NCBI GenBank assembly: GCA_000092065.1 | Contig: CP000595.1 | DNA length: 64,000 nucleotides | DNA from: Ostreococcus lucimarinus | Lineage: Eukaryota | Reading direction: 5' to 3' (one strand) | Shown: positions 4,601-44,938 of the stretch, in pieces | Numbering within the stretch: position 1 is the stretch's first letter | Layout of the letters: each line of letters starts with the position of its first letter | Program-made: the position numbers and the translations under genes | The notes under the pieces: model-generated | What the model was told of the DNA's origin: nothing | Databases searched by the model: none | What the model saw: the letters and a program-made list of their open reading frames with translations, nothing else

Positions 4601-5922
4601 TCTTCATCAGTTTCTTCAACTTGCACGGTTCCCATTTCGCTAGTCTTTGTCGTAGACTTGCTCAATAAGAAGGCTTTCTCAGCTTTCTCTGCCGCTCGAA
4701 GTCTAGCTTCCAATACTTCGCGTTCTTGTCGCAACTTTTTCTCTTGCATGAGAAGCTCTTTGAGAGCGGCGCTCGCTTCATCTTTTCCGCTCGTCGCGCG
4801 CTCTTCAACTTCAGTAAACTCAACGGGAGCGGGTGGCGTCTCCACAACTTCGGAGACGACGGGCTCGCATGCTGGCTTCTGCGGATCTCGTGCCTTCGCT
4901 CTCGCCTCTGCATCTGCTCTTATCTTTGCCATCTTGGCATCCACCTGCGCTCTCACTCTGGCTCGCGTGTCTGCTTTCAACTTCTCCAACGCCGCGGCTT
5001 TCTCCTCTGGTGTTTTGGCGACAAATTTCGGCGCAGTTTTCTTTGCTTTTGCGTCTTCTTTTGCCTTGGCTTCCGCGAGACGCCGCTCCTCTTCGGCGGC
5101 CTCAGCCTTGGCGGCTCTTTTAGCTTCCATCGCCGCGCGAGCTTCGCTTTCAGCCTCGGCGGCGGCGCGCGCCTCGAGCTCTCGTTGCTCAATCGCCTTT
5201 CGAGCCGCAGCCTTCTCTCGCTTCTCCCTCAACTGTCTGTTCTCCTCCTCGAGCGCTCGAAACGCCATCAAAGACTGCCGCTCCGCCTCCAGTCGCCGCA
5301 ATTCCCGCTCCATCTCAGCCTCCTCGTCGCCCTCCGCCGCGCTCGCGCTCGGCGCCATGACCACCTCCATCTTCTTCGGCACCACCCCCTGCACCCCCCC
5401 GAACGCCTCTCGCGCCCGTATCTCGCTCTTCAGCGCCGTTATCTCCCCCCGCAGCGCGCGCACGTCCGCCGCTCTCGGCGCCCCCCCGTCCTCGCTCGGC
5501 GCCAGCATCGCTCGCAGCGTCGTCTCCAGCCCCTCCAACCGCGTTCGCAGTTCCTCCGTCGCGCTCCCTCGCGCGTCGTCCGTCACCGCGCGCGTCATCG
5601 CCCGCTCCCGTCGCCCGTCGTCGCGTCGTCGCGTCCCCGTCGTCGCGCCTTTTCGCATCCATCGCGTTTCCGTCGCGTTCGCGCGCGTTCGCCCCCTCGC
5701 GCGCGCCGTCGCGACGGCGTCCGCGCGCGTCGCGATCGCCGCGCCGAGCGCCATCGCGTCGAGCGTCGCGCGTCGCGCCTTCGCGCGTCGTGCGTCGCGC
5801 GCGTCGGCGTCGCGCGCGTCTCGTCTCGCCCGGGTGTGTGGTGTGGATAACGCGGCGTCGCGCGATCGCGCGGCGTCACTATACATGGGCGTTCGTACGG
5901 CGAATCGGGCGTATAGTAACAT
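1681..5922 (-). CDS. Starch synthase III-like: N-terminal coiled coil with Ala/Gln/Glu repeats, two CBM53 starch-binding modules, GT5 catalytic domain
   Basis: The C-terminal half has the GT5 glycogen/starch synthase signature KVGGLGDVVTSLG...VVLPKYD plus a GT1-type C-domain. Two CBM53 modules show the SWNRW / GSNDWTG signatures. The N-terminal roughly 650 aa is heptad-rich (EAE/KAK). The start is uncertain: the 5922 ATG lies inside a duplicated 61-bp repeat, and in-frame alternatives are 5886 (MYSDAARS) and 5754 (MALGAAIATRAD), per the start finding at 5880-6011. Confidence 0.8.
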   Translation of the reverse strand: MLLYARFAVRTPMYSDAARSRDAALSTPHTRARRDARDADARDARRAKARRATLDAMALGAAIATRADAVATARARGRTRANATETRWMRKGATTGTRRRDDGRRERAMTRAVTDDARGSATEELRTRLEGLETTLRAMLAPSEDGGAPRAADVRALRGEITALKSEIRAREAFGGVQGVVPKKMEVVMAPSASAAEGDEEAEMERELRRLEAERQSLMAFRALEEENRQLREKREKAAARKAIEQRELEARAAAEAESEARAAMEAKRAAKAEAAEEERRLAEAKAKEDAKAKKTAPKFVAKTPEEKAAALEKLKADTRARVRAQVDAKMAKIRADAEARAKARDPQKPACEPVVSEVVETPPAPVEFTEVEERATSGKDEASAALKELLMQEKKLRQEREVLEARLRAAEKAEKAFLLSKSTTKTSEMGTVQVEETDEDIIDVAVNTEAAAQAATAQAEAEAQAAAAQAEAEAQAAAAQAEAEAQAAAAQAEAEAQAAAAQAEAEAQAAAAQAEAEAQAATAQAEAEAQAAAAQAEAQAEAAAAQAKAEAAAAQAEAQAEAAAAQAEAEAAAAAEMEAKAKAVAEAEAKVKAAALAEAKLQALAAEELAKSQKNTVSTIELDEELRMEQELSAELQVAYDEAKELAAAIPMAAKDWEIATNEVSAKFSGISRHLDGSTPSDANLWSLEPAVPVVGMPVTVRYCPTNRVLHGQNTIVMHYGSNDWTGAEQVRMEKSTGADDTFIATVDVPATAAVMDFVFSDGGAIYDNADRADFHAPVRNASQKLEIARMSSVLQRFQEITTARHAKEKADKIKKDKRDKAKAEAKAKAQAVTLKQQEHVLFTEPGQLEAGKIMKLFYNPNNTSLKGSERVFIVGSWNRWSHEKTFKLPMTEVLVKGEKRMEVELNIPTDAYMMDFVFSNGNHEGAHYDNRNNMDYHIPVIGGKDEKGVAVVEKPLHVVSVSVEMAPIAKVGGLGDVVTSLGLAVQAEGHKVEVVLPKYDVLKYDLIEDLKEEEGFQWGGCYNHVFSGTVEGVKTYFIDPDNGMFKVGMIYGTDYLEIPLTDAERFGYFSRAALEWMLQSGRQPDIIHCHDWQTAPVAKVYWEDYHNYGLGNPRVVFTIHNLDFGQSLIREAMDYSQIGTTVSRSYAQEISGHDSISHQLQKFHGVVNGIDPDIWDPANDKCLPVSYEIDTVAEGKAACRAALCSRSNISNKSDVPLIGVVTRLTHQKGIHLIKHAIFKALERGCQVVLLGSAPDPNVQREFEDMANALKQNHFNDAALHLYFDEPLSHLIYAGSDMILVPSMFEPCGLSQLIAMRYGTVPVVRRTGGLADTVFDYDHDHAKAEWEGMTPNGFQFDGTEAHDIDYALNRAIDLFYNDIEKFHALQANCMSCDFSWNRPALDYIELYHAARK
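4195..4575. repeat. Coding tandem repeat, period 33 bp (about 9-10 copies), encoding AQAEAEAQAAA units in the SSIII N-terminal region
   Basis: Near-perfect repeats of gcttgagcggcggcagcttgagcttcggcttcggc are visible on the + strand. The minus-frame translation is AQAEAEAQAAAAQAEAEAQAAAA... Confidence 0.85.
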
Positions 5923-14961: not shown

Positions 14962-17802
14962 TTATACGGGCGTACCGCCCCGATCTCGATCTCGATCTCG
15001 ATCTCGATCTCGATCTCGATCCGCGGACTCGCGCGTGAAGCCGTCTCGACCGTTCTCGTTTGGGCAATACTTTGCCACGCCGTCGTCCGAGATGGGCACG
15101 ACAGATTGTTCGCCGGCGTCGTAACTGATCGACGGCGACCACACGAGCTGGATGGTTTCGCCGACGTTCTCGAAGGAGTGAATCCAACCGCACGGCATGA
15201 ATAAAATGTCGCCCGCCTCGACGACGGCGCCGAAGCCGCGCGAACGCGCGATTTTGGGTTGTTTGTCCAAGTCGACGTTGAAGGCGTTCCCCAGATAGAC
15301 GGGATTGTACAACTCTTCACCGCCGACGCGCGCGGAGAGCGGGTAGAGGTTTTCCTCATCGGCGCGATCCCAGACGACGGCGCGTTTCGAGCCTTGAACC
15401 ACTAAAACCATCACGTGAGCCGGTTTGGCGTGATGATGCGCGTGATACGCTCGAACGCCATCGCCACTGGCGAAGAGCATAAACTTTTTGAACTCCGTAG
15501 GTCGCTCGCGAAAGAGTATCTTGGAGATATACGACCAGTCTCCGCGCAATTTCGTTTCGACAGCTGCTTTGACGCGTTCGGCGAGTGCCGGACATTGTTC
15601 AATAATGTGCCACGAGTGTACGCTCGGTGGCCATAAATTATCCGCTGGGTGTAAAAAGTCCACGCCGCGTTTTCTGGCTATTTTGGATTCCCCCATCAAC
15701 TCACTATCGAAAAAATCTCTCAGTGTTTTAATCTTTCCTTTGCCTTCGAGAAAATCCAACGTTTCATTCAGCGTCAAACCTCGTGTCGTTTCGAGACGTT
15801 CGGAAAGATCTCGCAAAAGTTTTTGATGCGTCGTTTTCGTCATAGACTGGAACAATGGCACTATTTTCGACCCCAAGTCGGCGAATGCATCGCCGCATAA
15901 ATCTAAAATGAGCTCTCGCGTCACGACGCTTCGTAGCACAGTTGCAAGGTTAGCGTTTTCGATCACCACTGGTTGCCCTTCCTTGACGTATTTCCGCTCG
16001 AACGCGTCAATTGATAGTGTAGATGCGTCAACGCGCTCGATGTTGTTCCACTGAAAACTCGGATCGCTCGACGACAGCAGCAGCGGTATATCATCATGTT
16101 GCGGCGCCTCGACCGTCGGCGCGCGTTTGTTTCGTTGATGATCCTCAACTCTTTCGCCACGACCGAGGTTGGCTTGATCATCTTGAATTCGAACTAAAGA
16201 CTCTAGGAAAGACGTAACACTTTGGGCATCGTTCGGTCCGATGAAACTCTGTGCGATCGCATTCAACTCCTTATGATTTCGCACATACGGCCCAAAGTGT
16301 GACGTTTTCATCTCGCGTCTGGCTTTTAGTGACTCTTCCACGGGCCACGGACAATTTAATGGATCGCAACACGGCGCATTAATGTCATACTGACTTTCTG
16401 CTTGAAGCAAAGTAGTCTTAAGCGCACCCTCAAAGCCGTAACGATTCAATAAAGTCGCGCGATCTTTCAGAAAGGCGACATCTTCTTCGGCGATGCTGTA
16501 CTTTTCCATCAACTCCTCTATTGTTGCGTCAGTGACTTCCGCCAAAAACGCGCTAAACGTGGAAGGAAACGTGCGGTGAATGGCACCCCCCTCCACCCAA
16601 CATCTGTAATCTAAGATAGCTCCGATAGTCGGTGACCAGTTTCCGTTTTCAAGCTCCACGATGCACGCCGGTTTAGTTTCGTTGGCAGACTTTGCGTGGC
16701 ACCTTTCCATCCACGGCAAAGTTTTTTCTTTCTCATAGATCACATAACCTGCAACATAGTGCCAGTGATGGCGCGTCCCGGGAATGCTCACTGTGCTGGT
16801 TTCGTCCTCACGTTTCAACATGTCCTCGTTGTCTATCAGCATCAACGACCCTTTGGCTTCGTCGATGAAGATGTTGAATATATTTCTGTCGTGGTTACCA
16901 AGGAGGAAGTCCATCAGAGTCATCCCTATGACGTCCTCTCGCTTAAGTCGCGATACAACGAGAAAAAGTTCTTTCGTCATCATGTTCTGGCCTGGTCTGG
17001 CACCATTGATATCAGTTGGCGCGATTCCCTTTGCCCAGTCTGTGACGAGAACGTGAGTGTTTTGCTTTCCACCAAGAGAACGTGTGTCGCGTGGCGTGAA
17101 AAACTTCAAAGTCTTTGCCTCCGTAGGCGACACAAGTCGCCCGAACCCCATTGTTTCGATCAATCGATGGATGGCTGATATCCTTTCCGGGGATCGATCA
17201 CGCTGACTGTGGAAACCGCCACACGTTTCGTCAACCGGCGTCGCGTTTGCGTGTTGACGAAATTGTCCACGAATACCGCACCAAGCCTTGACGCTCACCT
17301 TTTTCCCTTCGCTCGTAACTCCTCGCAACACCATTGCCTCAGATTTGCCGACATACCTCCCTGGATTTCCCGCGTCGATGCGCTCAACTTTGACGTCGCA
17401 GTCGCAGCGCTCGCACCACCCACGCGAGTCGACGACGTCGTCTTCGCCCAGCTCGGAATGAGGCACGCATGTGGAGCAAGACGAACACGTCTCAAAGCTC
17501 GCGCGTGTACGCTTGTGATTTGTGTCTGCCCCGCGTTCATCGTCACTATCTTTCCGCACGTCGGCGTCGGCGTAATCAGCGTCAGCGACACCATCGGCGA
17601 GTTTCAGCGCTCTAACAGCAATCGTCTCGCGACGCGGCGACGTCCTCGTGAGTGCGACGGTGAGCACGCACACGAACGCGATAGAATAACACGGTGGTTT
17701 CCACCGCGCGGGCCTTCGACGCCTCTTCGTGGCGTGATGCCACATCGGAGGCGCGGAGTGACGTCGGGACGGCGACAAGCGAGAAGGCGTCGTAGAACGC
17801 AT
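14962..17802 (-). CDS. Type-II membrane protein with a FAM20/Four-jointed-like secretory-pathway kinase domain fused to a C-terminal JmjC (cupin) domain and an (RD)n tail
   Basis: N-terminal signal anchor PCYSIAFVCVLTVALT. Fam20-like catalytic motifs: MDFLLGNHDRN (compare FDFLIGNMDRHH) and LMLIDNEDM (DN metal motif). JmjC signatures: HAKPAHVMVLVVQGSKRAVVW and GDILFMPCGWIHSFENV. The track start 17844 is TTG; ATGs are at 17802 and 17745. Confidence 0.55.
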   Translation of the reverse strand: MRSTTPSRLSPSRRHSAPPMWHHATKRRRRPARWKPPCYSIAFVCVLTVALTRTSPRRETIAVRALKLADGVADADYADADVRKDSDDERGADTNHKRTRASFETCSSCSTCVPHSELGEDDVVDSRGWCERCDCDVKVERIDAGNPGRYVGKSEAMVLRGVTSEGKKVSVKAWCGIRGQFRQHANATPVDETCGGFHSQRDRSPERISAIHRLIETMGFGRLVSPTEAKTLKFFTPRDTRSLGGKQNTHVLVTDWAKGIAPTDINGARPGQNMMTKELFLVVSRLKREDVIGMTLMDFLLGNHDRNIFNIFIDEAKGSLMLIDNEDMLKREDETSTVSIPGTRHHWHYVAGYVIYEKEKTLPWMERCHAKSANETKPACIVELENGNWSPTIGAILDYRCWVEGGAIHRTFPSTFSAFLAEVTDATIEELMEKYSIAEEDVAFLKDRATLLNRYGFEGALKTTLLQAESQYDINAPCCDPLNCPWPVEESLKARREMKTSHFGPYVRNHKELNAIAQSFIGPNDAQSVTSFLESLVRIQDDQANLGRGERVEDHQRNKRAPTVEAPQHDDIPLLLSSSDPSFQWNNIERVDASTLSIDAFERKYVKEGQPVVIENANLATVLRSVVTRELILDLCGDAFADLGSKIVPLFQSMTKTTHQKLLRDLSERLETTRGLTLNETLDFLEGKGKIKTLRDFFDSELMGESKIARKRGVDFLHPADNLWPPSVHSWHIIEQCPALAERVKAAVETKLRGDWSYISKILFRERPTEFKKFMLFASGDGVRAYHAHHHAKPAHVMVLVVQGSKRAVVWDRADEENLYPLSARVGGEELYNPVYLGNAFNVDLDKQPKIARSRGFGAVVEAGDILFMPCGWIHSFENVGETIQLVWSPSISYDAGEQSVVPISDDGVAKYCPNENGRDGFTRESADRDRDRDRDRDRDRGGTPV
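14981..15022. repeat. (CGATCT)7 microsatellite encoding the C-terminal RDRDRDRDRDRDR tail of the kinase/JmjC protein
   Basis: cgatctcgatctcgatctcgatctcgatctcgatctcgat. Confidence 0.9.
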
Positions 17803-17879: not shown

Positions 17880-20800
17880 CTATTTTGGGGATTCCCGCGA
17901 GTTCGTGGAGTGCGCGGTGAGATGGCGCTCGTCCAAGGCGATTAAACGTTCGCCGCGTCGGTGTGTTCGAGCTTTCCAGCGCTCACGTAAATCTTGCAAC
18001 TGTGAGCTCAAAGCGCCGTGTTGCTGGCGAATAGTAATCGTAGAGTCAGCCTTGATCGTTTCAAGTAAATCGTCGTCGGCGAAAGGAAGACGTTGACCAG
18101 TCATGCTTCGAAGTTGGATGCGTTCGCTTTCCTTTGCCATTTTCTCTTGATGAATGATCTCTTCGTCTCTCTTGGCGTCGAATTCGTCGACAATCGCCTC
18201 TTCAAATTCCAAGTCGCGAATAGCGCGCTTGATGAGGCCTTCTTCGCCCTCTTCGCGGAACTGGCGAACCAACGTTCGGGCAAAATCATACCATGCCCAT
18301 GCGTGCAGGATGAACAACAAGGCCGTGATGAGATCGACAAAAGTCGAGCCTTGTCCACCTTGTTCGCCTGATTGTTTGAAAATCAGTCCGCCGGTGAATG
18401 TTGCCATAGTAGCAAGTAAGCCATGTGTCTCGATCTTTGCGTACTTTTCGCCGGCATACGGTTTTGCGACGATGTGGAATACAAAGAAAAGTTGCAACAT
18501 ACAATTCACCGTGTATCCACCAATGACTGCACTTCGTCTAGATACGATCACTATGAAGATCAGGATGAATTTTCTCGCGAATATGACCCATTCCCACCAC
18601 CACGCGGACTTGACATTGATTCCCTTGAAGAGCAAACCGAGACGATATTGCACCATTGCTGAATCGTGCTCGCCGACAATGTCTTCTCCGCGAGCGAGCT
18701 GCAGCAAACCGTATGGAATACCGACGATATACAGTATAGCCCAAACGATGACCATAAACAAGTAAAGTGAGTAGGCGGTGCCCCGGCATTGGACCGAATA
18801 GTCGGATACAAAGTGTCGATCGCTGTCGCCAGACGTACCAGTGCACTGCGTGAACTCAGCCAAATATTGAACAAGGGTGGGATAGAGAAGCCACAGAGTC
18901 GCGACGAGCCATGATATTACTATGTCGTAAGCTCTGATGTTTCGCACTTCTTCAAGACCGACATCGTGCTTGTTCACTTTATTCGTGTTACCACTATCGA
19001 TGGCGTTTGTTTCTTCATCTTCAGCAGAATCATTTGCCTTTGTCTTCTTCGTGGCTTCCACTCTAGCTTGGGCCGTTGCCTCTCTCAACTCTTCGACGTA
19101 CTTGATAACCGTGAAGATGATGAACAAGAATATCATCAAGCCTAGTGGGAGCAACTCGTGAAACAGTAGATTTCCGTAAAACTTCCAGCCAATGGCGCAC
19201 TTTGCTGACGCCGACCGTATGTCAGGTAACGAAAGCTTCTCGGCGATAAGTAAGAATGCTTTCATCGAATCCGGCCATGCGAGGTCTAAATTTTTCGCCA
19301 ACGCTGTCATTTGTAAATAGGTGACAAACGATTTTATCATGCCGACGACTTGTGAACTTCGGCGTTGATTGACAACCCGAATGAGCCACACCAGCAACAA
19401 TATCCAGAGAAAGTTGACGACGACGATCGGAAAGTTGAGCACTCGATATGCTCCTGCCGAACAATCGTAACATTTTGGTGGATATGCTTCTCGAATGGCG
19501 TGGTACGCATAACCATTCGCACAAGCTGCGCACATAGCACCAGTGTACCCTGCATCAAGACATGTGCTGTTTACGCCGCCTAGGCACGCGTCAGGGTACG
19601 GACACGCGCGAAATTTCAGCGTTTGTCGGTCAAATCTACTGAAACCAGGAAGCGCTTCGACATTTTCGAGCTCATCACCGTAACATTTTGCACCTTTCGG
19701 GCATGCCATACATTTGTAATCATCGAGTGGGAGTTGTCGATAATAGCTCTCGAATGGGACACTCGTTTGAGAGATGCAGTGGCAGGAACTCTTGCTCACG
19801 TGACCAAGGGCGCCTAAAAGTTGCACTCCTGACTGTGCTTGATATGTTTGCCTCAATCTGCCGTCAACTCGCGAAGTATCCATGGAGATTGGGCACGACG
19901 TGCATGCTCCGTCACCGTGCGCCACTTTGTAGAAGCCATTCTTGCACGGCACACACATGCCATACGGGTGAAGAGCATCGAGCCATCGAGATGACCCAGA
20001 TGTAGCTGTCTTATATAGAGTTATATTCGTTTCGACATAAATGGTATCGATATCTTCAGTATATCCCGTGCCTCCACTAATGTCGGCGGTGAAGCCAGGA
20101 ATGCACTCGCACACGCCAGAGCGAAGCACGCTGTTCGGTTTGACTGTTGAGCAATTCATGACCGTCGTTGGAGTTGAAGGTACGATACTCACATTCAACG
20201 TTGAAGCCGAAAAATTCAGCTCATAGGCATTCGCGCGCTCACCGATGATTGTGATTGAATCGAATTTCGCCAAGCCGTTCACCATCGCCGCCTCTGTCCC
20301 TGAAATGCTCGCCACAGCGGGCGATACACTGACCGTAAGCGTCGTATTGATATCGACGCACACGTTTCCTACAGAATCGATCGCCGCGATGACTGGTGCA
20401 GGCGAAAGTGCGAAGTCATTTTCGTTTATGAAGGGAGGTGCCGTGACGACGGCCAACGCTGTCGGCGCGCCAGGGACTACGGTGAACTCCAACATGTCAG
20501 TCTCCAGCACAGGATAGAGCGCACCAGGACATCGACTTGAGCCACATGATGAAGCGAATCGCAAGCGATAGGTCCCAGCTAATGCATTTTGAATATGCAG
20601 ACCGACATTATAGTGTGTGTCGGGCGCAATACCACTATACCCAGCCTCCCTGCAATATGATGGTGCGGGGTTGGTGTACACCACTCTGTACGTGTAAGCA
20701 CCAGTCGTGGGATTACTGGAGACCACAGTCCTCGGGCTAGAGTCAAGTGAATCTTTGCACCATCCCACTCCACCATTTACTGCGAGAAGAGATCCATCCC

Positions 20801-23800
20801 ATTCGGCTTGCAAGGTTGGTAGCACACTTGCCCGTGGTTGATCCTCCGCTGGCACGAAAGAAAATAGCTCAACCGTGATGTTACGCGCTTCGGTGTCCCA
20901 CATCGAGCCCACATGATAACCGCCAGGATCAGTCATTTGCACGACAAAGTCACGAAGATCCAGGGTTTGCGCTGCGATATATTGTGCAGGATCCCGACAC
21001 AAACCTCGGTCGACACGTGTGAACGAGTTACCGGTGCACGTGTCAAGCGCCGCTGGGTACCCAGCGCTGTAAGTCAGTTGTGTGGAGACCGAATCGAGAC
21101 CCGCTGTAGAAAACGTCAATGAGTACGTTCCGGTGCACGGTCGATAGAATACGATATCATCAAACACCGCTGTGCCCGCAACGATAGTCTGAGGTGTGTA
21201 TGATACATTCGTCTCAAAGTTGCAAGCGCTCACGACCACGCGCTCCGCCTTTACAGAAACTTCGTAATTTAGGTTGAGCGCATTCAAGCCTGCATCGACC
21301 ACACGAATCTGAATCATACTCAATTTTACTTTTTTTGCCGTGGAATACGCAGTCTGCAACGCGATTGCTGCACCGCTGGCAGGTGACGTGAAAGTCTGAA
21401 CAATTAATCCACCATTAATATTTTGCATGAAAAAGAAAAAATAAGTAAGCCTTACCGGTGAGATGAAAAGCGCACTTGCAGTGCCAATCGTAATCGTAAA
21501 TGTACGAGTCGCGGGCGCAACGCTGAGCCCTAACGCGGTACAATTGTCGCAGTTGAAAGAAATCACATAATCCCCGATCTGTAATTAATTGTGTGTGAGG
21601 ATGAAAGTTCTAATGAAATCTGTCATCAATGGGAGCGTACCTCTGGGGCATTGATCACTGTGTCACGAAGTAGTGTACTGTCGGTTCCCGCCGCTATGAC
21701 GCCATTTCTCCCGCTCGTCGCAAACGTATGCCTACATTTTGAATAAAATTAATTAATTCCGGTTATGAATTAATTAGAATCGAAACGTACCTTTGACCCA
21801 CGATACTGGCGATAATACTGTACTCGTGAGTGTTAAGCGACCCGAAACGATTACCTGCGTCATCTGCGATCGCAATTTCGAAAGGGCCGAGGGTTGTTGA
21901 TGCCGTCGCCGGGTATGATCCTTGTGGTGAATTTGCCACGACCAGTTTAGCTGGATCTCCTAACGCCACTGTTACCGCATAAGTCGCAACGGCCTTGCCG
22001 TTGAGATAAAATACGATATCGTGCTGCTGCGCAGTCGGCGCGAGCAGCACGAGGTTCTTAAACTCAACGACGCCGGGTGTGCCGCCCTGTGTATTTAAAT
22101 AAGTTAATTAATTGTTCTCCGTGAAATAAATAATTCATCGCGTTCGAGCATAGTTGACTCACCTGAGTTGCACACGTCGTAGTGCTACCACACGATATCG
22201 CAAAAGTTTCCCCTCCTATCAAGGGATTAATTCCCTGTGGATAAGCCGCCAATTCGGCGGTTTGGCAGACAACAAATATTTGTGCCCCGGTCGGCGAAGC
22301 CGAAATAAAATTCCCTCCGCCATCGTAAAGTCGCCCAACTAGAGGACTAGAAGCGTTCGCAATCGATGTTTCTAGCTTAGATTTGAATGTTCCACTACCT
22401 TGTGTTTCGTCGAGGATCAATTGTGCCGCATTTCCCAAAGTCACGGAAAAGTAGTACTGTGCACCCAGCAGACCCGGCGAGTGGATGTCGACGGCGTACG
22501 TACCGATGTACGGCTTGGCGATGTGTAGTCCATCAAAATAGCTTCCACCAGACTCAGTGTTGGCTTCAAAAGTCGCCACTGATGTACATGATACTCCATG
22601 CAGTGTCGACGATGTACTGGCAAGCCCAGCACATTCGCATGCGTTGCCTTCACCAGTTCTTCTGCACAAGGTGACATTTTGCGGCGATAAGTGCACACGT
22701 CTGCTAGGACATGTCTCGCAAGCTTTCGTTTCAAGATCATCGACGGGATTGAAAGCTCCGTCGAGAATAGTCACCACGACTGGGTACATTGCAACGTCCG
22801 ACGCGGCGCGATATTGATGACAAGTGCAGTTGACATTAGTTTGGCACGCTCCGTCGACTGTGGCGCAGTACGGCAGTAAGCCGAGGTGATTGGATCGCCC
22901 TGCCGTGATCTCTAAATCCACGCTTGCAGACCTCAAACTCGAATCGGACGACACGAAAGTCAAATTGTACGTTCCTTTCTGCGGCTTGACGAGATGCAAA
23001 CCTGAGAACGTCGCAGTCCCAGCGCTCGAAGTGGTTTCCACAAGAGAGCCGGTCCTCGGGTACAGTGAAGTATCTGTGTATACAGTAAGTACCGACGTTC
23101 TTGCGATTGTTGTCGCATTTGCACCGAGTATGAACGGATGAATTTCGACGTTTGTGTCATTCATCATCGCCGTCAACGTAACTCCGTTCGGCAAAGTCCC
23201 CGTCGGCGACTCATTTCCCGCCCCATCCACCGGTACGACGACGAAGTCATCCAGAGGCACAGAGTGCCCGGCTGAGTATGCTGTTGCCTCGGATAGTTGG
23301 ATGCTTTCAGTGAATGATGGTGAAAATTCTAAGACTTTGGGGCTGGTGACCTTGAATCCGCTCACGGCTCCAATCAAAACGCTCACCGTGAGAACTGTAC
23401 TTTGTAGCTTTCCCACGCGCAACTCGCCACTCACTTCAGCGCCAGTCTCAATGACATTAAGGGTGTGCGTACCGACTTTCGGTGAATTTGCAATCAAACC
23501 CGTGAAAGAAACTTGACCGTTGCCATTCGTGAACATCGCAGTCGTTCCAGAAAGTTTCAAAGTTTCGCAAGTCACTTGAATGGTACGATTTGGCGCTACT
23601 GCATCCGTGGTTGAGTGACGATCCGCGGTTCCCATTGAATTGCCGAGCATATCTTGAACGTATACCGTGAACGAACCCAATCCTACAGATTGATCAGCTG
23701 TTACCGATGATAATATCGATTGACTCGAAGCTAGTTCATATCCAGCATCTCCAGCTAGCACATTCACCACTTGGAGAACGGGTGTTAAATCGCCAGACGA

Positions 23801-26800
23801 GAATGTCAATCCGAACTCCCCGACGACAGGTCCGACTACTTTGAGATCAGAAAATCGCCATACACCGCTGTCGTCTCGTTTTACTTGCAAAGTACCATCC
23901 AAAGTGATACCAGCCGATGCATGTACGGTCACAGTACGCGGCGTAATTTCCGCCGCACCGACAAAGTTATTCCCCCCGTCGTATGCGCCAATGATAATTT
24001 CACCTACGGATTGCTTGGGTGCCTCGGCGTAAACTGTTCTCTTACTATACGTCCCATTTATACGAAGGTAAGACGGTTCGCCGATCTCCATTTGCATAAT
24101 TGAATGCGCGCGATATCGAACTCCATTCAACGTCGTCGTAAACTGAACAATGTACTTTGAAGCCTCGCCAAAGTCTCCTCGTGTGGCATCGCTATACGTG
24201 ATATCGTCCGTGGATCCTACAGCTCGTGAACCAGAAGGTGGCATAGCGACAAGTCTGAGATCTGAAAATGATACTCGACCATCATTAGTCGTCTTGTTCA
24301 GCGTTCCAGTGAGCTGGGCTCCGATACTTCTCTCTCTGTAGTCTTCGTTGCTGTTGAGTGTACCCGTCACGAGTGACGCTTGTACGGTGACGTCATCAAG
24401 AGATAGCGTCTGAAGCATACTTCCACCGATGTCAACGATGTCGACTGTCAAATGTCCGATCGATACGTTTCGGGCCGCGTCGAGCACGACGACATCTGTT
24501 GGAAATAACGTAGCACTTGATATCATAGAATTCTCCGTCGCCGCGCCGGGTGTCACCTTCAAACCACCGCTCGAACCTGGTGTTACGGATAAATAGGCGT
24601 GTGCAAGTACACCAAGGTCATCACTACATGCACCATCATCATTGGTACAATCGGTTGCGGTAAAAGTGATCACGTATTCCCCAGCGGTTGGTATCGAGGA
24701 TAGCTGTGGAGTGAATGTTGCGATGCCGTCCGAAGTCTGCACTGATGACGTTGCCTCGGTGATAGCGACCTCTGACGGCCCAGAAATACTCGCCGAAATT
24801 GTGTAACCTTTCGTACCTCCTTGACCACGGTCATAGTTGATTTCAGTTCCATCGATATCCACAAGTCCAACCTTGAACGTTCCAAGTGAGAAATCTGTCG
24901 CGGCAACTCGAGCTTGATGCGAATCCGGTCCACTCAAGAGCTTAACTCCAACTGGTGGTCCATGAAGCTTCAAAATCCCTCCACTAACGTAATCAATACC
25001 GTTCAGTGCAACTGCGACCTGCGCATCTTGCGGTTGTCCGTTCGTAAGCCATGGAAGCGGACTCCCAACTGGATTGGCGCACCTTCCATTGACTACATTG
25101 CACACAGGACACTTGATTTCTGACGAACTAACGAACACCGCACTGGTCACACTCGTCGTGTTATCGTTGAACTTACATTTTAAATCGGGCGAATTCAGAA
25201 ACGGACCTCCGAGTATGCGAAGCAGTACTGGCGCGAGATCGGCATCCTCGCCTGTGAGAAGAACCTTGGCGTCATCTGAACCAATCTTTGTACTAATTAT
25301 GACGGCTGGATCGTGATAACGTAGATATATCTGACCAGAGTTCCACAGCGAGTTGGTCCAAATGCTTGTTGGATCGCTCGAATCGGTTGGTAATCCATCG
25401 AACGATATTTGGACTTCGCTATAACCTATAGTGGAGGAGTTTGAATTTGACGCCGACGGTGCCATGCATGAGAGCTCTGTCGCCGAAACATAAGTTGCTG
25501 GCGACCAAGATGTCTTCGAAAACCCATTATTAGCGTCATAAGTGTGTCCAAACCTACATGAAATCGAATGACTCATTCCACTGGCAAGGGTAGGCGAATA
25601 AAAGCCAGATCCATGAATTTTTATCGGCGTTCCAGACGTGAGCGCGCTGATGTGAGTCGGCTCGATCCCCGAAACGATCACCGTGGAGTACTTTGTGTAC
25701 GTCGTACTCGCCGCAGAACTCACCGCGAACACGCTGCGCTCGCCCGGTACGGCGCTGATGCCACCGATGGTGTGGCTTTCTTCAAATGTCCCCACACGCT
25801 TGAAACAACCGCTTATACAAGCACTAGACGTGTCCGTACCCCCTATTTCGATCTTGACGATCCGACTCTTACCGCTTTCACGCGATCCCACGGCCCAGTA
25901 CATGAAATCTTTTTCTCCTGCCGTCGCTCCGGTTTGAACGGTAGCGCTCAGAGCATCACGCTCTCCGAGCGCTGCGTCAAGAGCAATCACGGCGAGTGGA
26001 CTATCGCCTTCAGCAAAATTCAAGTCAAACATGAAGATGCATGCCGCGCGATTTTTACACCCCGGACAGTCGCCGTCTCGACCTGAAGTGCCCACGTATC
26101 CATAGCCGTTGTGCTTTGTGATCGCAGTAAACGTCGAAAAGCGTCCTTGCTTTGAATCGAGCTGCCCTTCGCACGCCTCGAGCACCTTGACGTTTGTTGA
26201 GTCCAAATACATTTCAACCCCATCGCCGTCACGAGTCCCTGAGTTTGTATTCACCTTGAACAAAGTAGGATAAAAGGTTTTGCCATCGGAGTCATCCAAG
26301 AGGGCAGATCCAGCGAAGATGACATAGTTGACACCTGTTTGAGTATGCGCCACACTCGTCTCCAACCTCATGGCGTCCGGGGCAAGCGAACATGTGGGGC
26401 ATTTAGTGCTCAGTAAACCCGGAGCTAAGAAGTTTATTCCTTTATCGTTCAAACTGCCGTCGACGTGACCAATGACGCTTCGCGACAGACCGTCTTCGTG
26501 CGTGGCCTTGTACACTATCATGCCGTTGGCTGGGTCTGTGCCCATGGCATCCAAAATGTACTGCTCTTTTGAGAAAGTCGCACTCGCCTGACCATTTGTC
26601 AATGAACTGAGAACGCAGTTCGCCCACTGCGATGAATCTGATGAGCATGTAGTACCGACATACTTGAAAAGCGAAAATCTAAACTGATTTGCCGTGGTCT
26701 GATGCCACATGTTCACTGGCACGACGACGCCCGTCAGCGCTGTCGACAAATCGGCAGCCATTTTAGCGTACACTCCGTACCAACCGCGCGACTTCTGAGG

Positions 26801-38323: not shown

Positions 38324-41300
38324 ATGACGCGCGAGGAGCGAGGATCGTCGGCGAAGAAGAAGCGTCGAACGTCAACGTCGAGCGCGAAGGGCGAGAGCGG
38401 GGCGACGCTCGACGGACAACGCGAGGCGCGCGCGCTCGGGCCGTGGTCGACGACGGCGCGCGCGCGAGAGGAACGCGCGCGCGCGCGCGCGCACGCGAGC
38501 GCGAGCGCGAGTGGGAAACGAACGAGGGAGGAGGAGGAAAAGGGATCGTTTCGTGGATTATTCGTGGATTGTCGGACGGTGGACGATGACGCGGCGTTCG
38601 AGGCGTGGGAACGGGAGATGCGGGCGGTGGGCGAGGCGCTGCGCGAGTGCCCGTGTACCGAGAAAGACTGGGAGAGCGTGGGGGCGATGGAGAGTGCGCA
38701 AGGCGAAGGCGAAAGTGATGCGTGGGAAAGCGAGAAGATTTGGCTTCATAAGATGTCACGCATCGCGTTCTACGACTCGCAACCGCTGAGCGAGACGAAC
38801 GCGTGGCCGTTCGCTTCGAGAACGAAGAAGGACGCTACAAAGTCGACGGTGGCGCTCTTCAAGGCGAGCGTCTCGGCTTTCATCGCAGCGAAAAATACGC
38901 AGCGACTTGCGGAAGTGGACTGGAAATTACAAGAAAATAAATTAATCAACAGTTGGAAAGAATTGCTTATGACCCACACGCCTCGTCCGGGAGGCTTGGC
39001 AGACGTGTCGTGCGAGTTCAACGTGCACGTCACAGCGCTCGAGCAAGAGTTGGCGAAGAGACAAAATGAAGGTGATAAATCGGATGAATTTGGACGGCGC
39101 ATCAAACACATCAAAATCATGATACAGGTGTTGCAAAGCATAAAGGCGAGCTTCCAGTACTGCGCCACGGCGCTTTATGACACCGTGTTCGCGCCTCTGA
39201 GAGCTTTTTCTTCGGCGTCCATTACGAGTGAAAATTTCGAATCCGGCGTGGAGTTCGTCTCATGGGCCAGTCGCTCGGTGATGATCGCATCCGAACTGTG
39301 CCAAACGAAAGATTCATATCACGTTCGAATGACGCGATACACCAAACACGAGTTTTTGAATTGGTCACGAAAACTTTTGGACTTCTTCTACCACCACCTA
39401 TCGTCCGTGAGAGGTTCGCACATTGTCGAAACACTCGGGTCAGGTAGTGATTGTGCAGAATTAATGCAGCTCATCAAGTGCTTACCCACCATGCGTCTGA
39501 CGCTACCGTGCAAAGGGACTAGCCGGCGTGCCACCTATCTTTCGGACACAAGATTTTCGGACAAATTTCAACGAAAGCTGACACGATTCGCTCTCACGGT
39601 GATCGGTGCTGCAAAGTCTCAACTTTCGCAGCACACACAAACGCACAAATTAGGCAAATTTCTGTTCCCGGAGTGGATCGAGCATCTCGTCGATACCATC
39701 GAGCACAATAAGAGTTACACAGTGAAAGAGCTAGCCCGGGAGATTCTTCTCTCGTTGGATATTGCCAACTTGCTCGCAACTCGTGTAGAAGTGCTCAGCG
39801 TAAAATCTCTCATAAAATTGTCTGACGATGAATTGTCTGTCGACGACGAATTGTCTGTCGACTACGATGACGACGTAAAAGAGCTCAAAGAGTTGTTATC
39901 ATGGCTTCGCTCAATATTAAGCGTGCATCCATCCAAGTTGAGGAACGTGGCTGACTTGGCGAAGGACTTGATTTCCGTCTTTGGATTCTGTCGCCTCCGA
40001 CGCGAAACACATGGTGACAAAGTTCAAAAAAGTGGGCATGATCATAGTTTAGAGTCGGACATATGCAGTATCTTTGCGTGCCTCGCCGTCAGTCGCGATC
40101 ACGACCTTGACGATGAAGAGAAGCTCAAATCTTGTCCGTGTGAGATGGTCAAGTTGAGATCTGAAGACGCGAGAAAAATGATTCAGCAATTGGTGATGCA
40201 TGAAGATCATCTCGACGATGTCGAGGCGGTGATTTTGAATATGCTAACGCTGGATCGAACGAGCATGTCAGCGAGCGATACAACCATCCCTTCCGCTTTG
40301 GCCGCGCTGACTATGTTGGTCCGAAAAAATTGTGTCCTCAGGGAGCGATTTTTCAAATCGGGCGACACCACCAACACGTTGTTGGAGATTCTTGAGTGCA
40401 AGAATGCGAACGTAGCGCGCATCACCAGCGCTTGCATTCTGTCATTCGAAGAGCATCATCGGCTCGTGACTAGTTTGTACAAACCGAACGTGATCACCGA
40501 TAAAAAAGGCGAGCAAGTGACTGAAATATCTGGTTGGGACGTTGACACGATTCGTCAGTCGCTCAGAGCCATCTCTGCGCTCGTCAAAGACTCTACCGTG
40601 TCTTCAATCGGTTTCGATAGCGCCATTTTGGAAGTCATCTGCACTGATAGGCGAATGCTTGTTCTTACGAACAAGATCAAGGCGACGATAGAAAAGAAGA
40701 TTAACAAGAGTATGGATTATCCCAACTCCCGGCTCTGCTTCCCAGAAGCTCTGCTTGAAGAATGGGTGTTCGATCTACTCTGCATGAGAAGCGATCTTCT
40801 CACTCAAATGGCCACTGCGGTCACAAACGGCGGCGGTGACCCGTGGAAAAACTTCAAGCCTAAACATGAAGAGTTCGCGAGTTTCATCAGTCGTGAGTTT
40901 GAAGTCGCGAACACCGACGCGACGATACCACCGGAGGCGCACGCAGAATGGTTTCAAGAGGTCGTGACATTGGTGACAACTGTGCAAGAAAAACTCAAGA
41001 AAGACGAGGAAATCTCCGACGTCTGCAGTATTTTGATGGATGGAGACACCGATGGTCCATCTTCCCGTGTTGGTATCGTAGTCCCCATCTTAACTCTGTT
41101 ACACAAATGTCGCATCTTGCAGGAGCACAATTTGATTTCCGAGCTAGAAGTCGAGGGCATCAGCGATATTGAAAAAGAAGCGTGTTACGTCATCGGCTTA
41201 TTAGCGAGTAAGCAAGGAATTCAAGATCGTATCGCAAGCTCTTTCCTTATCGAAGGCAAGAACGGAATCGAGCAATTAATTCCGCTCTTGCAACGATACC

Positions 41301-43258
41301 AACCCAGTGCGAAAAACGCCGCGAATGCCAGTGTTGCGAGACGCGCATCGGATGCAATCACAAACTTAGCACACGAGAACAGTCGCATTAAAACGATGGT
41401 TCGAAATGCGAATGGCATCCCTCCTCTGGTCAATCTATTGGAATCGCAAGAGAAAAAAGTCCAGAAGGCTGCCGCTAGTGCGCTCAGAACTCTGGCTTTC
41501 AAAAATGGTGAAAATAAAAACCAAATTGTCGAGTGTGGCGCACTTCCGAAGCTCATTTTCATGGCTCGTTCAGAGGACGTAATGATTCACAAAGAAGCAA
41601 TTGGTGTGATTGGAAACTTGGTTCACTCTTCGCCGCACATCAAACGACGCGCCCTCGACGAAGGAGCGCTGCAACCCGTGATTGAATTGCTCAAGTCTCA
41701 GTGTTCCGAAACGCAGCGTGAGGCGGCGTTATTGCTTGGTCAGTTTGCCGCGCGCCTTGAGCCTGCAGCGCCGGGTGATCCAGACTATCGGACAAAAATA
41801 GTCCAGCGTGGAGCTGTAGAGCCGTTGATTAAAATGCTCGGCGGTCAATTTGTCTATCGTGAACCTGGTCTTCGAGAGATGGCAGCCTTTGCCCTCGGTC
41901 GACTTGCGCAACACGGGGATAATCAAGTCGGAATCTGCCATTCGGATGGATTACGGCCGTTGTTGACGTTACTCGAATCAGAGATAGAAGATATCGCCGA
42001 AGGACTTCGTCATCATAGCGCTTCCGGGAAGTCTGATCACGAGATCGATCTAGACGCCAAGCGCTTTGCTGAAAATTTGCAGCACAACGCTGCGTTTGCA
42101 CTCTATGGCCTAGCCGCGCATCAAGACAACGTGCCAAAGATGCTCAAAGAGAACGCCTTCATGCGGTTGAAATTTTCTCATCTCATCGCCGAACAGAGCA
42201 AACAATGTGTGAATAAAACGTTAAAGCGGCTCGAGGACGGAGTCAGCCGCAGAGATGTCTTGACTTATCTCGGTTTCGTCATAAGCACTGGCAAGCCAGT
42301 CGAACGTCAAAGAGTAACGCTCGCTCTGGCTTGGCTAATCAGGAAAGAAAACCAAGACTATCTGAAAGACATGCGCGCGGTTTTCATAGACAAAGGTGGT
42401 CTTGACGTCCTTTCTGGCGCTTTACTTGATACGCCGGCGGAGCCCATAGACTTTTCTGGGCATACGAGTGGTCTCGCCGGTGGCAAACGCATTGTAAACG
42501 TGATAATGGAGGCTCTGAGAGAGATTAAGGACAAGCTGGTGTCACAGGTTGTGGTGGAATCTCACATGATGCCGCCACCCTCGACGCCAACGGCCGAGGA
42601 GCATATGCCAGCGAACTTCAATGACCCCGAGCTTTCAGACGTGACGTTTATTGCTCGGGATGATGAAGGTGAAAAGCGAGAGTTCAATGCGCATAGAATC
42701 GCTTTTACGCACGCCTCTGATGCGTTCTTATCAACGCTCGAAGCGGGTAAAGCTGATGTCGACGTTTATCCCGCCACATACAAGGTTGACCTCGAAGACG
42801 TTTGTTGGAACGTGCTTGAGGCGATGATGGATTTCATTTACACGGGCACTGTCGGACCGATGTCCAGCCTCCGAGACCAGGCGTTTCTCCAGCATAGATG
42901 CGAGGACGTACTCTCCGCCACGACACGCTTCGACCTTCCCGGGCTCAAGTATTTGACCGAAAAACTTTTCATCGATAACGTGAAAATGGATACTTTCACA
43001 TTCGCGAGAACGTGTGCATTGTATCGCGCCGCCGTGGAGCACGACGCCGTGGCGATCCAGGACCACGTGCTGGGCTATGTTCTCGACAACTACGACAAAC
43101 CTTGGATTGACGACGATGTCACGATGAATTGTCTCACTTCATACAAAGCGCGCGTGAAAGACATCGTCGAATGCTTCGGGAAAGGCTTGGTGAAATACCT
43201 TGACAAACTGTTGCGCCGAGAGCGCGTCGCCGTCGTCGCGGACGCGCAAGACGAATGA
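38324..43258 (+). CDS. Large Armadillo-repeat plus BTB/POZ protein (ARIA/ABAP1-like architecture) with a long N-terminal helical region
   Basis: ARM repeats, for example ITNLAHENSRIKTMVRNANGIPPLVNLLES, AAASALRTLAFKNGENKNQIVECGALPKLIFMARSED and IGVIGNLVHSSPHIKRRALDEGALQPVIELL. A C-terminal BTB is present: ELSDVTFIARDDEGEKREFNAHRIAFTHASDAFLSTLEAG...DVCWNVLEAMMDFIYTG. ATG at 38324. The gene is AT-richer than its neighbours. Confidence 0.65.
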   Translation: MTREERGSSAKKKRRTSTSSAKGESGATLDGQREARALGPWSTTARAREERARARAHASASASGKRTREEEEKGSFRGLFVDCRTVDDDAAFEAWEREMRAVGEALRECPCTEKDWESVGAMESAQGEGESDAWESEKIWLHKMSRIAFYDSQPLSETNAWPFASRTKKDATKSTVALFKASVSAFIAAKNTQRLAEVDWKLQENKLINSWKELLMTHTPRPGGLADVSCEFNVHVTALEQELAKRQNEGDKSDEFGRRIKHIKIMIQVLQSIKASFQYCATALYDTVFAPLRAFSSASITSENFESGVEFVSWASRSVMIASELCQTKDSYHVRMTRYTKHEFLNWSRKLLDFFYHHLSSVRGSHIVETLGSGSDCAELMQLIKCLPTMRLTLPCKGTSRRATYLSDTRFSDKFQRKLTRFALTVIGAAKSQLSQHTQTHKLGKFLFPEWIEHLVDTIEHNKSYTVKELAREILLSLDIANLLATRVEVLSVKSLIKLSDDELSVDDELSVDYDDDVKELKELLSWLRSILSVHPSKLRNVADLAKDLISVFGFCRLRRETHGDKVQKSGHDHSLESDICSIFACLAVSRDHDLDDEEKLKSCPCEMVKLRSEDARKMIQQLVMHEDHLDDVEAVILNMLTLDRTSMSASDTTIPSALAALTMLVRKNCVLRERFFKSGDTTNTLLEILECKNANVARITSACILSFEEHHRLVTSLYKPNVITDKKGEQVTEISGWDVDTIRQSLRAISALVKDSTVSSIGFDSAILEVICTDRRMLVLTNKIKATIEKKINKSMDYPNSRLCFPEALLEEWVFDLLCMRSDLLTQMATAVTNGGGDPWKNFKPKHEEFASFISREFEVANTDATIPPEAHAEWFQEVVTLVTTVQEKLKKDEEISDVCSILMDGDTDGPSSRVGIVVPILTLLHKCRILQEHNLISELEVEGISDIEKEACYVIGLLASKQGIQDRIASSFLIEGKNGIEQLIPLLQRYQPSAKNAANASVARRASDAITNLAHENSRIKTMVRNANGIPPLVNLLESQEKKVQKAAASALRTLAFKNGENKNQIVECGALPKLIFMARSEDVMIHKEAIGVIGNLVHSSPHIKRRALDEGALQPVIELLKSQCSETQREAALLLGQFAARLEPAAPGDPDYRTKIVQRGAVEPLIKMLGGQFVYREPGLREMAAFALGRLAQHGDNQVGICHSDGLRPLLTLLESEIEDIAEGLRHHSASGKSDHEIDLDAKRFAENLQHNAAFALYGLAAHQDNVPKMLKENAFMRLKFSHLIAEQSKQCVNKTLKRLEDGVSRRDVLTYLGFVISTGKPVERQRVTLALAWLIRKENQDYLKDMRAVFIDKGGLDVLSGALLDTPAEPIDFSGHTSGLAGGKRIVNVIMEALREIKDKLVSQVVVESHMMPPPSTPTAEEHMPANFNDPELSDVTFIARDDEGEKREFNAHRIAFTHASDAFLSTLEAGKADVDVYPATYKVDLEDVCWNVLEAMMDFIYTGTVGPMSSLRDQAFLQHRCEDVLSATTRFDLPGLKYLTEKLFIDNVKMDTFTFARTCALYRAAVEHDAVAIQDHVLGYVLDNYDKPWIDDDVTMNCLTSYKARVKDIVECFGKGLVKYLDKLLRRERVAVVADAQDE

Positions 43259-43417
43259 TGACAGCATTTGCACGCATCCTAACATTGTAAAACACACACG
43301 AACGATTCATAGTAGTGAATCTAGAACAACGAATTGAAGCAAATACTGCGTCTGATTACACAATTGGACTAAAATAATCTGCCGTCACCGCGCTACCTAA
43401 GGTTCGTCTCGTCCCGC

Positions 43418-44141
43418 TTAAGAAATGATCAGCGCCTTCTTGAGCAAAGCACCCACGGTCTCCGACGGTTGCGCACCCTTGGCGATCCAATCCTTGATCG
43501 CCGGCGCATCCAAAGAGGATTGCTTGCGGATCGGATCGTACCACCCCAACTGTTGGATTGGCAAACCGTCGCGGCGCGCGCGCGAGTCGATGGCGATGAT
43601 GCGATAAAACGGTTCCTTCTTGCGACCCATGCGAGTGAATCGAATCTATATCGCGTCGTAATCGCGCAAACTCGTCAGTCTCCCGTTCACACTCCCGTTC
43701 ACTCCTCGTTCTCGACTCTCCTTCGCGTCTTTCGCGTTCGAAATCCCCATCCTCGCGTTCGTCTCCCCGAGGTCAAGCCCTGAGGAAATAGGGTTCCTCC
43801 CTCCCTCGCATCTCGCGCGACGTACCGCAACTCTGTTCTCCACGCGCAGCGCCGCGCGAGCGCCCGTGATGGTTCTCTTTTCAACCTATCGTCGCGCGCA
43901 TCCACCGTCCGTCGTCAGTCGTCGCGTTCGCGTCCTCGTCGTCCGCCGTCGCCGCGACCCCACCCATCGTCGACGGCGTCGCGCGATTCGGTCGTCCCGC
44001 GTCCCGCCGTCGCGCTTCGCGCGCCGCCGCGTCGTCGTCGTCGTCTCGACGATTCAATTTTACGCGACGCTCGCGCACCTTGCTCTGCACGCGCGCGCCG
44101 CCGACGAGGGCGGCGCTGAACGTGAACGTGCTCGCGCTCAT
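43418..44141 (-). CDS. RPS16: Organellar (bacterial-type) 30S ribosomal protein S16, nuclear-encoded; 3' exon 43418..43645, tentative 5' exons 43826..43885 and 44079..44141
   Basis: The 3' exon [71 protein letters not shown] matches bacterial/chloroplast S16 (VKIRLAR.G.K..P.YRIV..D.R..RDG...E.LG.YDP). Acceptor tatag at 43646-48. The bacterial N-terminal beta-strand is completed only if an upstream exon is added. The proposed upstream exons ([20 protein letters not shown] with gtacgt donor; [21 protein letters not shown] with gtgcgc donor) supply a presequence but are inferred. Confidence 0.5.
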
Positions 44142-44390
44142 GACGGACGCGGTGTGCCGCGACGACGCGCGCGGGGGCGCTCGACGCGCGACGGGCTGTT
44201 GGTGGCGTGCGATCGCATCGCGCCCGATGCGCGTCCGTCATGGGATCTCTCGCGCGCGGAATACGCGATCCCGACGCCTGCGCTCAAAAAATGCGAAAAC
44301 GAGACGTCACACGGACCGCGAACCCTCGCGCTCGAGGTCGCGCGATCGCGCTCGACGCGGCCTCTTTCGTCGACGCGCGCGCGACTCACG

Positions 44391-44938
44391 ATGATCAACG
44401 CCGACGGTGAAAATGTGGACCTGTACATCCCGAGAAAGTGCTCGTGGACGAACCGCCTGATCACGGCGAAGGATAAGGCGTCGGTGCAGCTGAACGTCGG
44501 GCATCTCGACGCGAACGGGGTGTACGACGGACGGTACACGACGGTCGCGCTCGCGGGTTACGTGCGAAGCAAGGTGCGTGCGCGCGCTCGATGCGATGGG
44601 GAAGAAATGTTTGCGTCGCCCGGGCGCGGGCGGCGGCGATGGGGGTCGACGATGCGCGCGCGACGCGGCGATCGCGCGGTGGTCGAGCGAGGCTAGGGCT
44701 TTTGAGCGCGCGCGCGGGCGACGAGGCGGGGCGCAGGACGTCGAGTGGGGGCGACGAGGCGCGTTTGGGATGGTTAAGGCGCGAAGCGGAGAGATCGCGC
44801 GCGTGGTGCGCGTGATGCGTCGTGCGAACGCGTGTACTGACGAATCGACGCTCGTTTGTTTCCCGCGAATAGGGCGAATCCGACTCCGCCATCGACTTGC
44901 TCTGGCAAAAGAAGAAGGCGGCCATCAACCAAGCGTAA
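44391..44938 (+). CDS. RPS21: 40S ribosomal protein S21e, 2 exons: join(44391..44573, 44873..44938), 82 aa
   Basis: Exon 1 is [61 protein letters not shown]. Exon 2 is [21 protein letters not shown], which matches S21e (MQNDAGE.VDLY.PRKCS..NR.I.AKDHAS.Q.N... / GESDDSILRLAK..G). Donor gtgcgt; acceptor cgcgaatag. The track shows a spurious 276-aa ORF (43866-44696) that contains exon 1. Confidence 0.75.

Follow-up and report, generated by a model that had tools for sequence, protein, structure and literature searches.

A divergent pair of spliced ribosomal protein genes, cytosolic eS21 and a probable chloroplast S16, on an Ostreococcus nuclear chromosome

Overall structure of the eS21/S16 locus

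Positions 43,418 to 44,938 of a 64,000-nucleotide stretch of contig CP000595.1 from Ostreococcus lucimarinus (assembly GCA_000092065.1; the whole stretch is referred to here as the window) contain two spliced ribosomal protein genes arranged head to head. The first-pass annotation had described RPS21e, with two exons on the plus strand, and a bacterial-type S16 on the minus strand, diverging from an interval of roughly 250 bp. The interval is 249 bp long, and profile matches bear out both identifications (PF01249 for eS21; PF00886 and TIGR00002 for S16). The two are very probably ordinary divergent housekeeping genes on an Ostreococcus nuclear chromosome, encoding cytosolic eS21 (RPS21e) and the precursor of a chloroplast bS16 (PRPS16).

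The features of the locus are listed below. Conservation of exons and introns was assessed by comparing the window with O. tauri and with a third Ostreococcus lineage (L007), against shuffled sequence, and the DNA identities refer to these three species.

43356-43417, minus strand: 3' untranslated region (UTR) of S16, minimum extent; the frame-shifted open reading frame (ORF) of the RNA product P0078, described below, passes the S16 stop codon and reaches 43356
43418-43645, minus strand: S16 exon 3, 75 codons and a TAA stop, ending in ALIIS; nearly the entire S16 domain; DNA identity 82-87%
43646-43825, minus strand: S16 intron 2, 180 nt, GTACGT...ATATAG, phase 0, between positions 2 and 3 of bacterial S16; DNA identity 53-58%, the level of shuffled sequence
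43826-43885, minus strand: S16 exon 2, 20 codons (VEKR...ENRVA); last stretch of the presequence, conserved ENRVA motif and residues 1-2 of the S16 domain; DNA identity 75-82%
43886-44078, minus strand: S16 intron 1, 193 nt, GTGCGC...CGATAG, phase 0; DNA identity 55-59%
44079-44141, minus strand: S16 exon 1, 21 codons (MSASTF...VQSK); presumed chloroplast transit peptide, N-terminal part
44142-44390, no strand: divergent spacer, 249 bp from ATG to ATG, containing both 5' UTRs and core promoters; DNA identity 51-56%, the level of shuffled sequence
44391-44573, plus strand: eS21 exon 1, 61 codons, ATG at 44391, ending AAG/GTGCGT at the splice border; DNA identity 82-87%
44574-44872, plus strand: eS21 intron, 299 nt, GTGCGT...AATAG; DNA identity 57-58%
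44873-44938, plus strand: eS21 exon 2, 21 codons and a TAA stop; DNA identity 91-95%

Among the three species, DNA identity is 67-95% for the five exons, compared with 51-59% for the spacer and the three introns and 48-53% for shuffled sequence. All GT and AG splice borders are kept in the three species, and S16 exons 1 and 2 contain insertions and deletions in multiples of three.

Translation of the two eS21 exons yields a spliced product of 82 residues that matches the Pfam family PF01249 (Ribosomal_S21e) over model positions 1-77 of 79 (E = 1.3e-36; 125 bits against a cut-off of 25). It is 95% identical to the annotated RPS21e of O. tauri over 100% of its length, and a complete MMETSP transcript shows 89% identity. 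Both the full-length profile match and the orthology to an annotated RPS21e place the product among cytosolic eS21 proteins.

Three-exon structure of the S16 gene

The S16 gene consists of three exons joined at two phase 0 junctions, and its spliced translation from the window is 116 residues long. This protein matches PF00886 (Ribosomal_S16) with 80.1 bits against a cut-off of 27, and the NCBIfam equivalog TIGR00002 with 100.8 bits against a cut-off of 45.3, the latter over model positions 1-77 of 78 starting from residue 40. Exon 3 starts directly after the ATATAG acceptor at 43651-43646, in agreement with the first-pass annotation, which had placed it after a tatag acceptor and proposed that the VKIRLAR strand of S16 is split by an intron. 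Model positions 1-2 of TIGR00002 are encoded by exon 2 and the remainder by exon 3; therefore, intron 2 does split the first β-strand. The N-terminal strand (V-x-I-R-L/F-x-R-x-G) is complete only once exon 2 has been joined to exon 3.

The ATG of exon 1 is the first start codon downstream of an in-frame stop, and the exon aligns with the N-termini of S16 proteins from O. mediterraneus, O. tauri, Micromonas and Chlorella. It had been proposed that any targeting presequence must come from upstream exons, for which two peptides were put forward as candidates. Both peptides are indeed in phase and bordered by GT..AG, yet rather than being alternatives they form exons 1 and 2 of a single gene.

An environmental spliced-RNA product, P0078, is matched residue for residue by exons 1, 2 and 3 together with the 3' flank, given a 5-nt deletion. 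The source label of this product is "merc", which we take to be a catalogue assembled from Tara Oceans metatranscriptomes. P0078 begins at MSASTF, and both S16 introns have been removed at exactly the predicted junctions. Window translations that retain either intron fail to reproduce it. The deletion sits in a GC-rich repeat of exon 2, GCGCGGCGCTGCGCG, and throws exon 3 out of frame; it reflects either an error of assembly or sequencing, or a frameshift allele present in nature.

The gene is also annotated in a sister species. The O. tauri chromosome record CAID01000016.2 contains a PF00886 gene of 113 residues, head to head with RPS21e and flanked by ARM/BTB, XPG and Brix genes. Its length equals the sum of the homologous exons (19+19+75 codons). 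The three-exon S16 model is thus real on four independent lines: homology, comparative genomics, the O. tauri annotation and spliced RNA. Both gene models, eS21 and S16, are far beyond what chance could produce, given their full-length matches to orthologues, the conserved exons and unconserved introns, and the exactly matching spliced-RNA product.

A different product could be read from the same locus, namely an ORF of 70 residues that starts at the internal ATG at 43630 and uses no upstream exons, which would make it a truncated, untargeted or decaying fragment of an organelle-derived gene. Prokaryote-style gene callers do call exactly such an ORF (P0010). However, the methionine at 43630 is not conserved, its place being taken by glycine in the L007 Ostreococcus, leucine in Micromonas and Bathycoccus, and valine in Chlorella; the 70-residue call is therefore an artefact. 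The short product would also be without the first β-strand of the S16 fold. Conservation extends to exons 1 and 2, whose splice sites are intact, the spliced RNA starts at MSASTF, and the O. tauri protein is annotated with 113 residues. We consider the chance that the short ORF is the actual product to be practically negligible; a start at 43630, which the first-pass annotation had itself named as a result that would overturn its model, is contradicted by these observations. Small multi-exon genes of this kind are easily mis-called, as prokaryote-style callers either give the 70-residue ORF alone or run through the introns.

Orthologues and age of the S16 gene

The three-exon S16 protein aligns end to end with the "30S ribosomal protein S16, chloroplastic" of O. 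mediterraneus (86% identity, 99% coverage). Other full-length matches are the chloroplastic S16 proteins of Micromonas pusilla, Bathycoccus and Chlorella (Chlorella vulgaris), as well as complete MMETSP transcripts. Across the junction between exons 2 and 3, the segment L-x-V-E-N-R-V-A-I-R-F-T-R is conserved in the aligned relatives.

Both introns are found at the same positions in Ostreococcus, M. pusilla, Bathycoccus and the trebouxiophyte C. vulgaris, with intron 2 located just before IRFTR. Exon 2 is 57-60 nt long in all four genera. Since this exon structure is common to the Mamiellales and Chlorella, the nuclear gene predates the split between the Mamiellophyceae and the core chlorophytes. 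The S16 gene is thus ancient in the nucleus, dating from an early chlorophyte ancestor, and it is already annotated in sister species. The first-pass annotation had taken a nuclear copy of rps16 to imply transfer from organelle to nucleus. A nuclear, organelle-type S16 is indeed present, but the transfer is not specific to this lineage: the gene structure shared by the Mamiellales and Chlorella dates it to an early chlorophyte.

Two irregularities were noted among the relatives. The public S16 model of Bathycoccus prasinos (P0031, 101 residues) is without exon 2 (19 codons, APIRTAKAFPSLKIENRVV). The exon is present in FO082263.1 (about 5260-5316 of the extracted locus L003) with good splice sites, and also in a metagenome-derived protein of 120 residues (P0006), so the omission looks like an annotation error. 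In one Micromonas lineage, the last S16 exon contains an extra intron between PLE and ELGWY, seen as read-through translations (P0058, P0061 and P0076). This intron is not found in M. pusilla CCMP1545, Ostreococcus, Bathycoccus or Chlorella, and looks like a recent gain.

Organelle destination and origin of S16

The top match of S16 among solved structures is chain p of 9TVU/28LU (4.4e-35), far ahead of all others, with an alignment that reaches into the ENRVA segment. 9TVU is the chloroplast ribosome (chlororibosome) of Chlamydomonas reinhardtii. It is followed by plastid-encoded spinach S16 (~4e-21), bacterial proteins (1e-17 or weaker) and mitochondrial bS16m chains (3.5e-13 to ~1.5e-7). 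The protein is orthologous to an S16 of the chloroplast ribosome, and its spliceosomal GT..AG introns stand at the positions of the chlorophyte PRPS16 family; its closest affinity is not to mitoribosomal chains. S16 is thus the chlorophyte nuclear PRPS16 orthologue, with its product expected in the 30S subunit of the plastid ribosome.

The presequence is ~39 residues long, with a net charge of +5, 38% alanine, serine and threonine, a high content of arginine and no acidic residue before position 23. The N-terminal extension can be aligned across chlorophytes. Within exon 1, a motif that aligns across the Chlorophyta (S-L/F-x-F-x3-V-x-S-T-Q) was noted in Micromonas, Bathycoccus, Chlorella and Nannochloris, and in a weaker form in Ostreococcus. 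Such conservation of a presequence across the Chlorophyta is unusual, being atypical of a transit peptide.

It could be argued that S16 serves mitochondria, either exclusively, as bS16m, or together with the plastid through dual targeting. Mitochondrial rps16 is known solely from a few amoebae and Malawimonas (PMC4256733). With green-lineage mitochondrial genomes being without rps16, a nuclear gene must supply the mitochondria as well, and dual targeting has been documented for angiosperm nuclear RPS16 (Ueda et al. 2008, as cited in PMC5737547). Green-algal transit peptides also resemble mitochondrial presequences. No second type of Mamiellales S16 was present among the database matches, which came from a word-seeded search around the window S16 that could miss a divergent mitochondrial paralogue. 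However, the nearest characterized relative is an S16 built into the Chlamydomonas chloroplast ribosome, and mitochondrial bS16m chains match far more weakly. A mitochondrial role, exclusive or shared, appears unlikely. If dual targeting were true, it would account for the unusually conserved presequence across the Chlorophyta.

Assignment to the plastid agrees with the published organelle genomes: rps16 is absent from chlorophyte plastid genomes, those of two early-diverging groups, the Prasinococcales and Palmophyllales, excepted (PMC4194372, PMC4860620). In the proposed pathway, exons 1 and 2 would supply the presequence of ~39 residues along with residues 1-2 of the S16 fold, and exon 3 the rest. 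After splicing and translation in the cytosol, the precursor would be imported into the plastid, lose its presequence and become part of the 30S subunit there. Departure of the gene from the plastid genome would date to early chlorophyte evolution, with the exon structure maintained from then on.

Several points weigh against this reading. P0078, with its 5-nt deletion, is an imperfect transcript record. Import into the plastid is predicted from orthology, and the cleavage site is likewise a prediction. The loss of plastid rps16 is taken from published chlorophyte genomes and probably applies here by extension. That the gene descends from cyanobacteria or a plastid, as distinct from its product functioning in the plastid, is only weakly suggested by ~75 aligned residues, over which identity to bacterial proteins is no lower: up to 54% for the best bacterial S16s, against ~53% for spinach plastid S16, the spinach value being approximate and judged by eye.

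A scan of bacterial and archaeal genomes with the mature S16, tried as a test of cyanobacterial affinity, was uninformative. It returned 43 matches of 42-54% identity, scattered over phyla and with no cyanobacteria among them; the scan was seeded on exact 8-residue words, and S16 is too short for it to speak on origin.

Divergent arrangement and gene neighbourhood

Neighbouring genes and best matches assign the window to the nuclear genome of an Ostreococcus species distinct from O. tauri (95% identity on eS21) and O. mediterraneus (86% on S16). The local gene order is ARM/BTB, S16, eS21, an ORF of 145 residues, an XPG nuclease and a Brix protein. The arrangement from ARM/BTB to Brix is identical in O. 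tauri, in two further Ostreococcus lineages from metagenomes and in Bathycoccus prasinos. The S16 3' UTR, which extends at least to 43356, comes within ~100 nt of 43258, where the convergent ARM/BTB gene has its stop codon.

The eS21/S16 pair has the geometry of a bidirectional pair, being head to head with a spacer of less than 1 kb. The first-pass annotation had suggested that one bidirectional promoter co-regulates the two genes. In its strongest form, the divergent pair would be a functional unit whose shared promoter couples cytosolic and plastid ribosome production, and which has been kept together for this reason. The arrangement does recur, head to head and at comparable distances (249-331 bp), in Bathycoccus and four Ostreococcus lineages, and the 249-bp spacer physically has to hold both core promoters. 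In O. tauri, an S16-annotated probe (SSR16) falls in a "dawn" cluster alongside a cytosolic 60S protein gene and eIF3 genes, although it is not mappable to the locus.

The genomic background argues against such a unit. Divergent neighbours account for 10 of the 33 adjacencies in the window, at ATG-to-ATG distances of 33-939 bp, and 249 bp lies near the median (counted on a crude map of long ORFs and two spliced genes over the 64 kb). In O. tauri, 2288 bidirectional pairs were reported for 3884 transcripts (PMC4035068), and the average intergenic length is below 200 bp (PMC2367439). Moreover, the synteny in Ostreococcus and Bathycoccus covers the whole five-gene block rather than the eS21/S16 pair alone. 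The pairing is broken in Micromonas pusilla, where ~12 kb and other genes separate S16 from eS21 and both lie on the same strand, and it is absent from Chlorella, where the neighbours of S16 are unrelated (a Dna2-type helicase and a B3-domain gene). The eS21/S16 pairing is neither commoner nor better conserved than the genome background.

Expression data at the level of gene classes point the same way. When O. tauri is kept in light/dark cycles, 80S ribosome biogenesis genes reach their maximum 3 h before light-on, and the large clusters of 70S ribosomal protein genes theirs 3 h after dawn (PMC2850359). The authors of that study interpret the ~6 h between the two peaks as a sign that cytosolic and organellar translation are uncoupled in time. 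A search for the pair in the supplements of the O. tauri diel study yielded one S16-annotated probe without a locus identifier and no S21 entry.

Sequence identity of the spacer among the Ostreococcus species is at the level of shuffled sequence. A single block stands out as conserved in all three, a pyrimidine-rich stretch close to the eS21 ATG that reads CCTCTTTCGTCGACGCGCGC in the eS21 sense direction. It lies at about 44355-44380, 10-35 nt upstream of the ATG, and is most simply the start of the eS21 transcript. It was also noted to resemble the pyrimidine-tract 5' ends of ribosomal protein mRNAs.

The k-mers shared among the three Ostreococcus spacers exceed those of mononucleotide shuffles, the one shared 8-mer being CGATCGCA. 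As evidence for a shared element this 8-mer was rejected, for it is not enriched in the window (9 occurrences against 11.3 expected from dinucleotide-preserving shuffles). Once Bathycoccus was included, no k-mer of 7 nt or more was common to the spacers. Separately, a perfect palindrome, TGCGATCGCA, occurs in the spacer at 44208-44217 and elsewhere in the window at 16252-16261 and 21865-21874; its core 8-mer is also present in the O. tauri and L007 spacers, but shows no enrichment over the window as a whole (9 occurrences, 11.3 expected).

Taken together, co-regulation of eS21 and S16 is unsupported. Head-to-head pairs at such spacing are the default in this compact genome, and the arrangement is not evidence of a dedicated regulatory unit. 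The existence of a functional unit kept together by coupled ribosome production seems highly unlikely. A reading composed of two separable parts, in which the eS21/S16 pair, at a nearly constant spacing (~250-330 bp) since the common ancestor of Ostreococcus and Bathycoccus, is a selected regulatory unit and a single S16 is dual-targeted to plastid and mitochondrial ribosomes, is likewise distinctly unlikely. The pair is made of ordinary housekeeping genes, and both the genes and their arrangement are already known in sister species. The head-to-head position of S16 and eS21 is synteny inherited within the Ostreococcus/Bathycoccus family, in a genome whose divergent spacers are generally short.

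Some features of the wider neighbourhood were recorded. On Micromonas pusilla scaffold GG663748.1 (~611.6-625.0 kb), S16 and eS21 are still on one scaffold, and ARM/BTB lies two genes from S16. This linkage of S16, eS21 and ARM/BTB is what rearrangement has left of the ancestral block. In the window, the GC content falls from ~60% to 49-50% at 18000-26000 and at 40000-42000. These low-GC stretches coincide with very long single-exon ORFs of 1182, 1771 and 1644 residues, the last being the ARM/BTB gene next to S16.

Comparison with known systems

The result for the eS21/S16 pair matters little beyond the quality of annotation. As for the layout of the S16 gene, an intron two codons into the ancestral bacterial frame, with the presequence carried on separate upstream exons, has been stable since the early chlorophyte ancestor. 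This layout is in keeping with a long-held view, namely that organelle genes moved to the nucleus acquired their targeting sequences as separate exons, and is an example of a known principle.

Compared with the cytosolic RPS21e genes of other Ostreococcus species, the eS21 gene has its single intron at the identical position and shows no notable difference. The S16 domain and the ENRVA-containing N-terminal extension are common to the window protein, the S16 proteins of O. tauri, O. mediterraneus, Micromonas pusilla and Bathycoccus, and chain p of the Chlamydomonas chlororibosome. The three exons and two intron positions are shared with the S16 genes of Micromonas, Bathycoccus and Chlorella, and the neighbourhood matches those of O. 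tauri and Bathycoccus. Relative to the annotated S16 of sister species, there is species-level divergence only, the window presequence being 2-3 residues longer (116 residues in total compared to 112-113).

The plastid-encoded rps16 of streptophytes, Prasinococcales and Palmophyllales belongs to the same family and presumably has the same role in the plastid 30S subunit; the spinach protein is the best non-algal match. In contrast to the window gene, which is nuclear, has two spliceosomal introns and encodes a presequence, these genes reside in the plastid genome and are without a presequence. The rps16 of land-plant plastids contains a group II intron, not spliceosomal introns.

The nuclear RPS16 genes of flowering plants (S16-1 and S16-2 in Arabidopsis) are, likewise, nuclear genes that provide organelles with a bacterial-type S16. 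They are reported to be dual-targeted and of mitochondrial ancestry, and the window S16 is much less similar to the corresponding chain of the Arabidopsis mitoribosome (6xyw_Bo, 5.6e-12) than to the S16 of the Chlamydomonas chloroplast ribosome.

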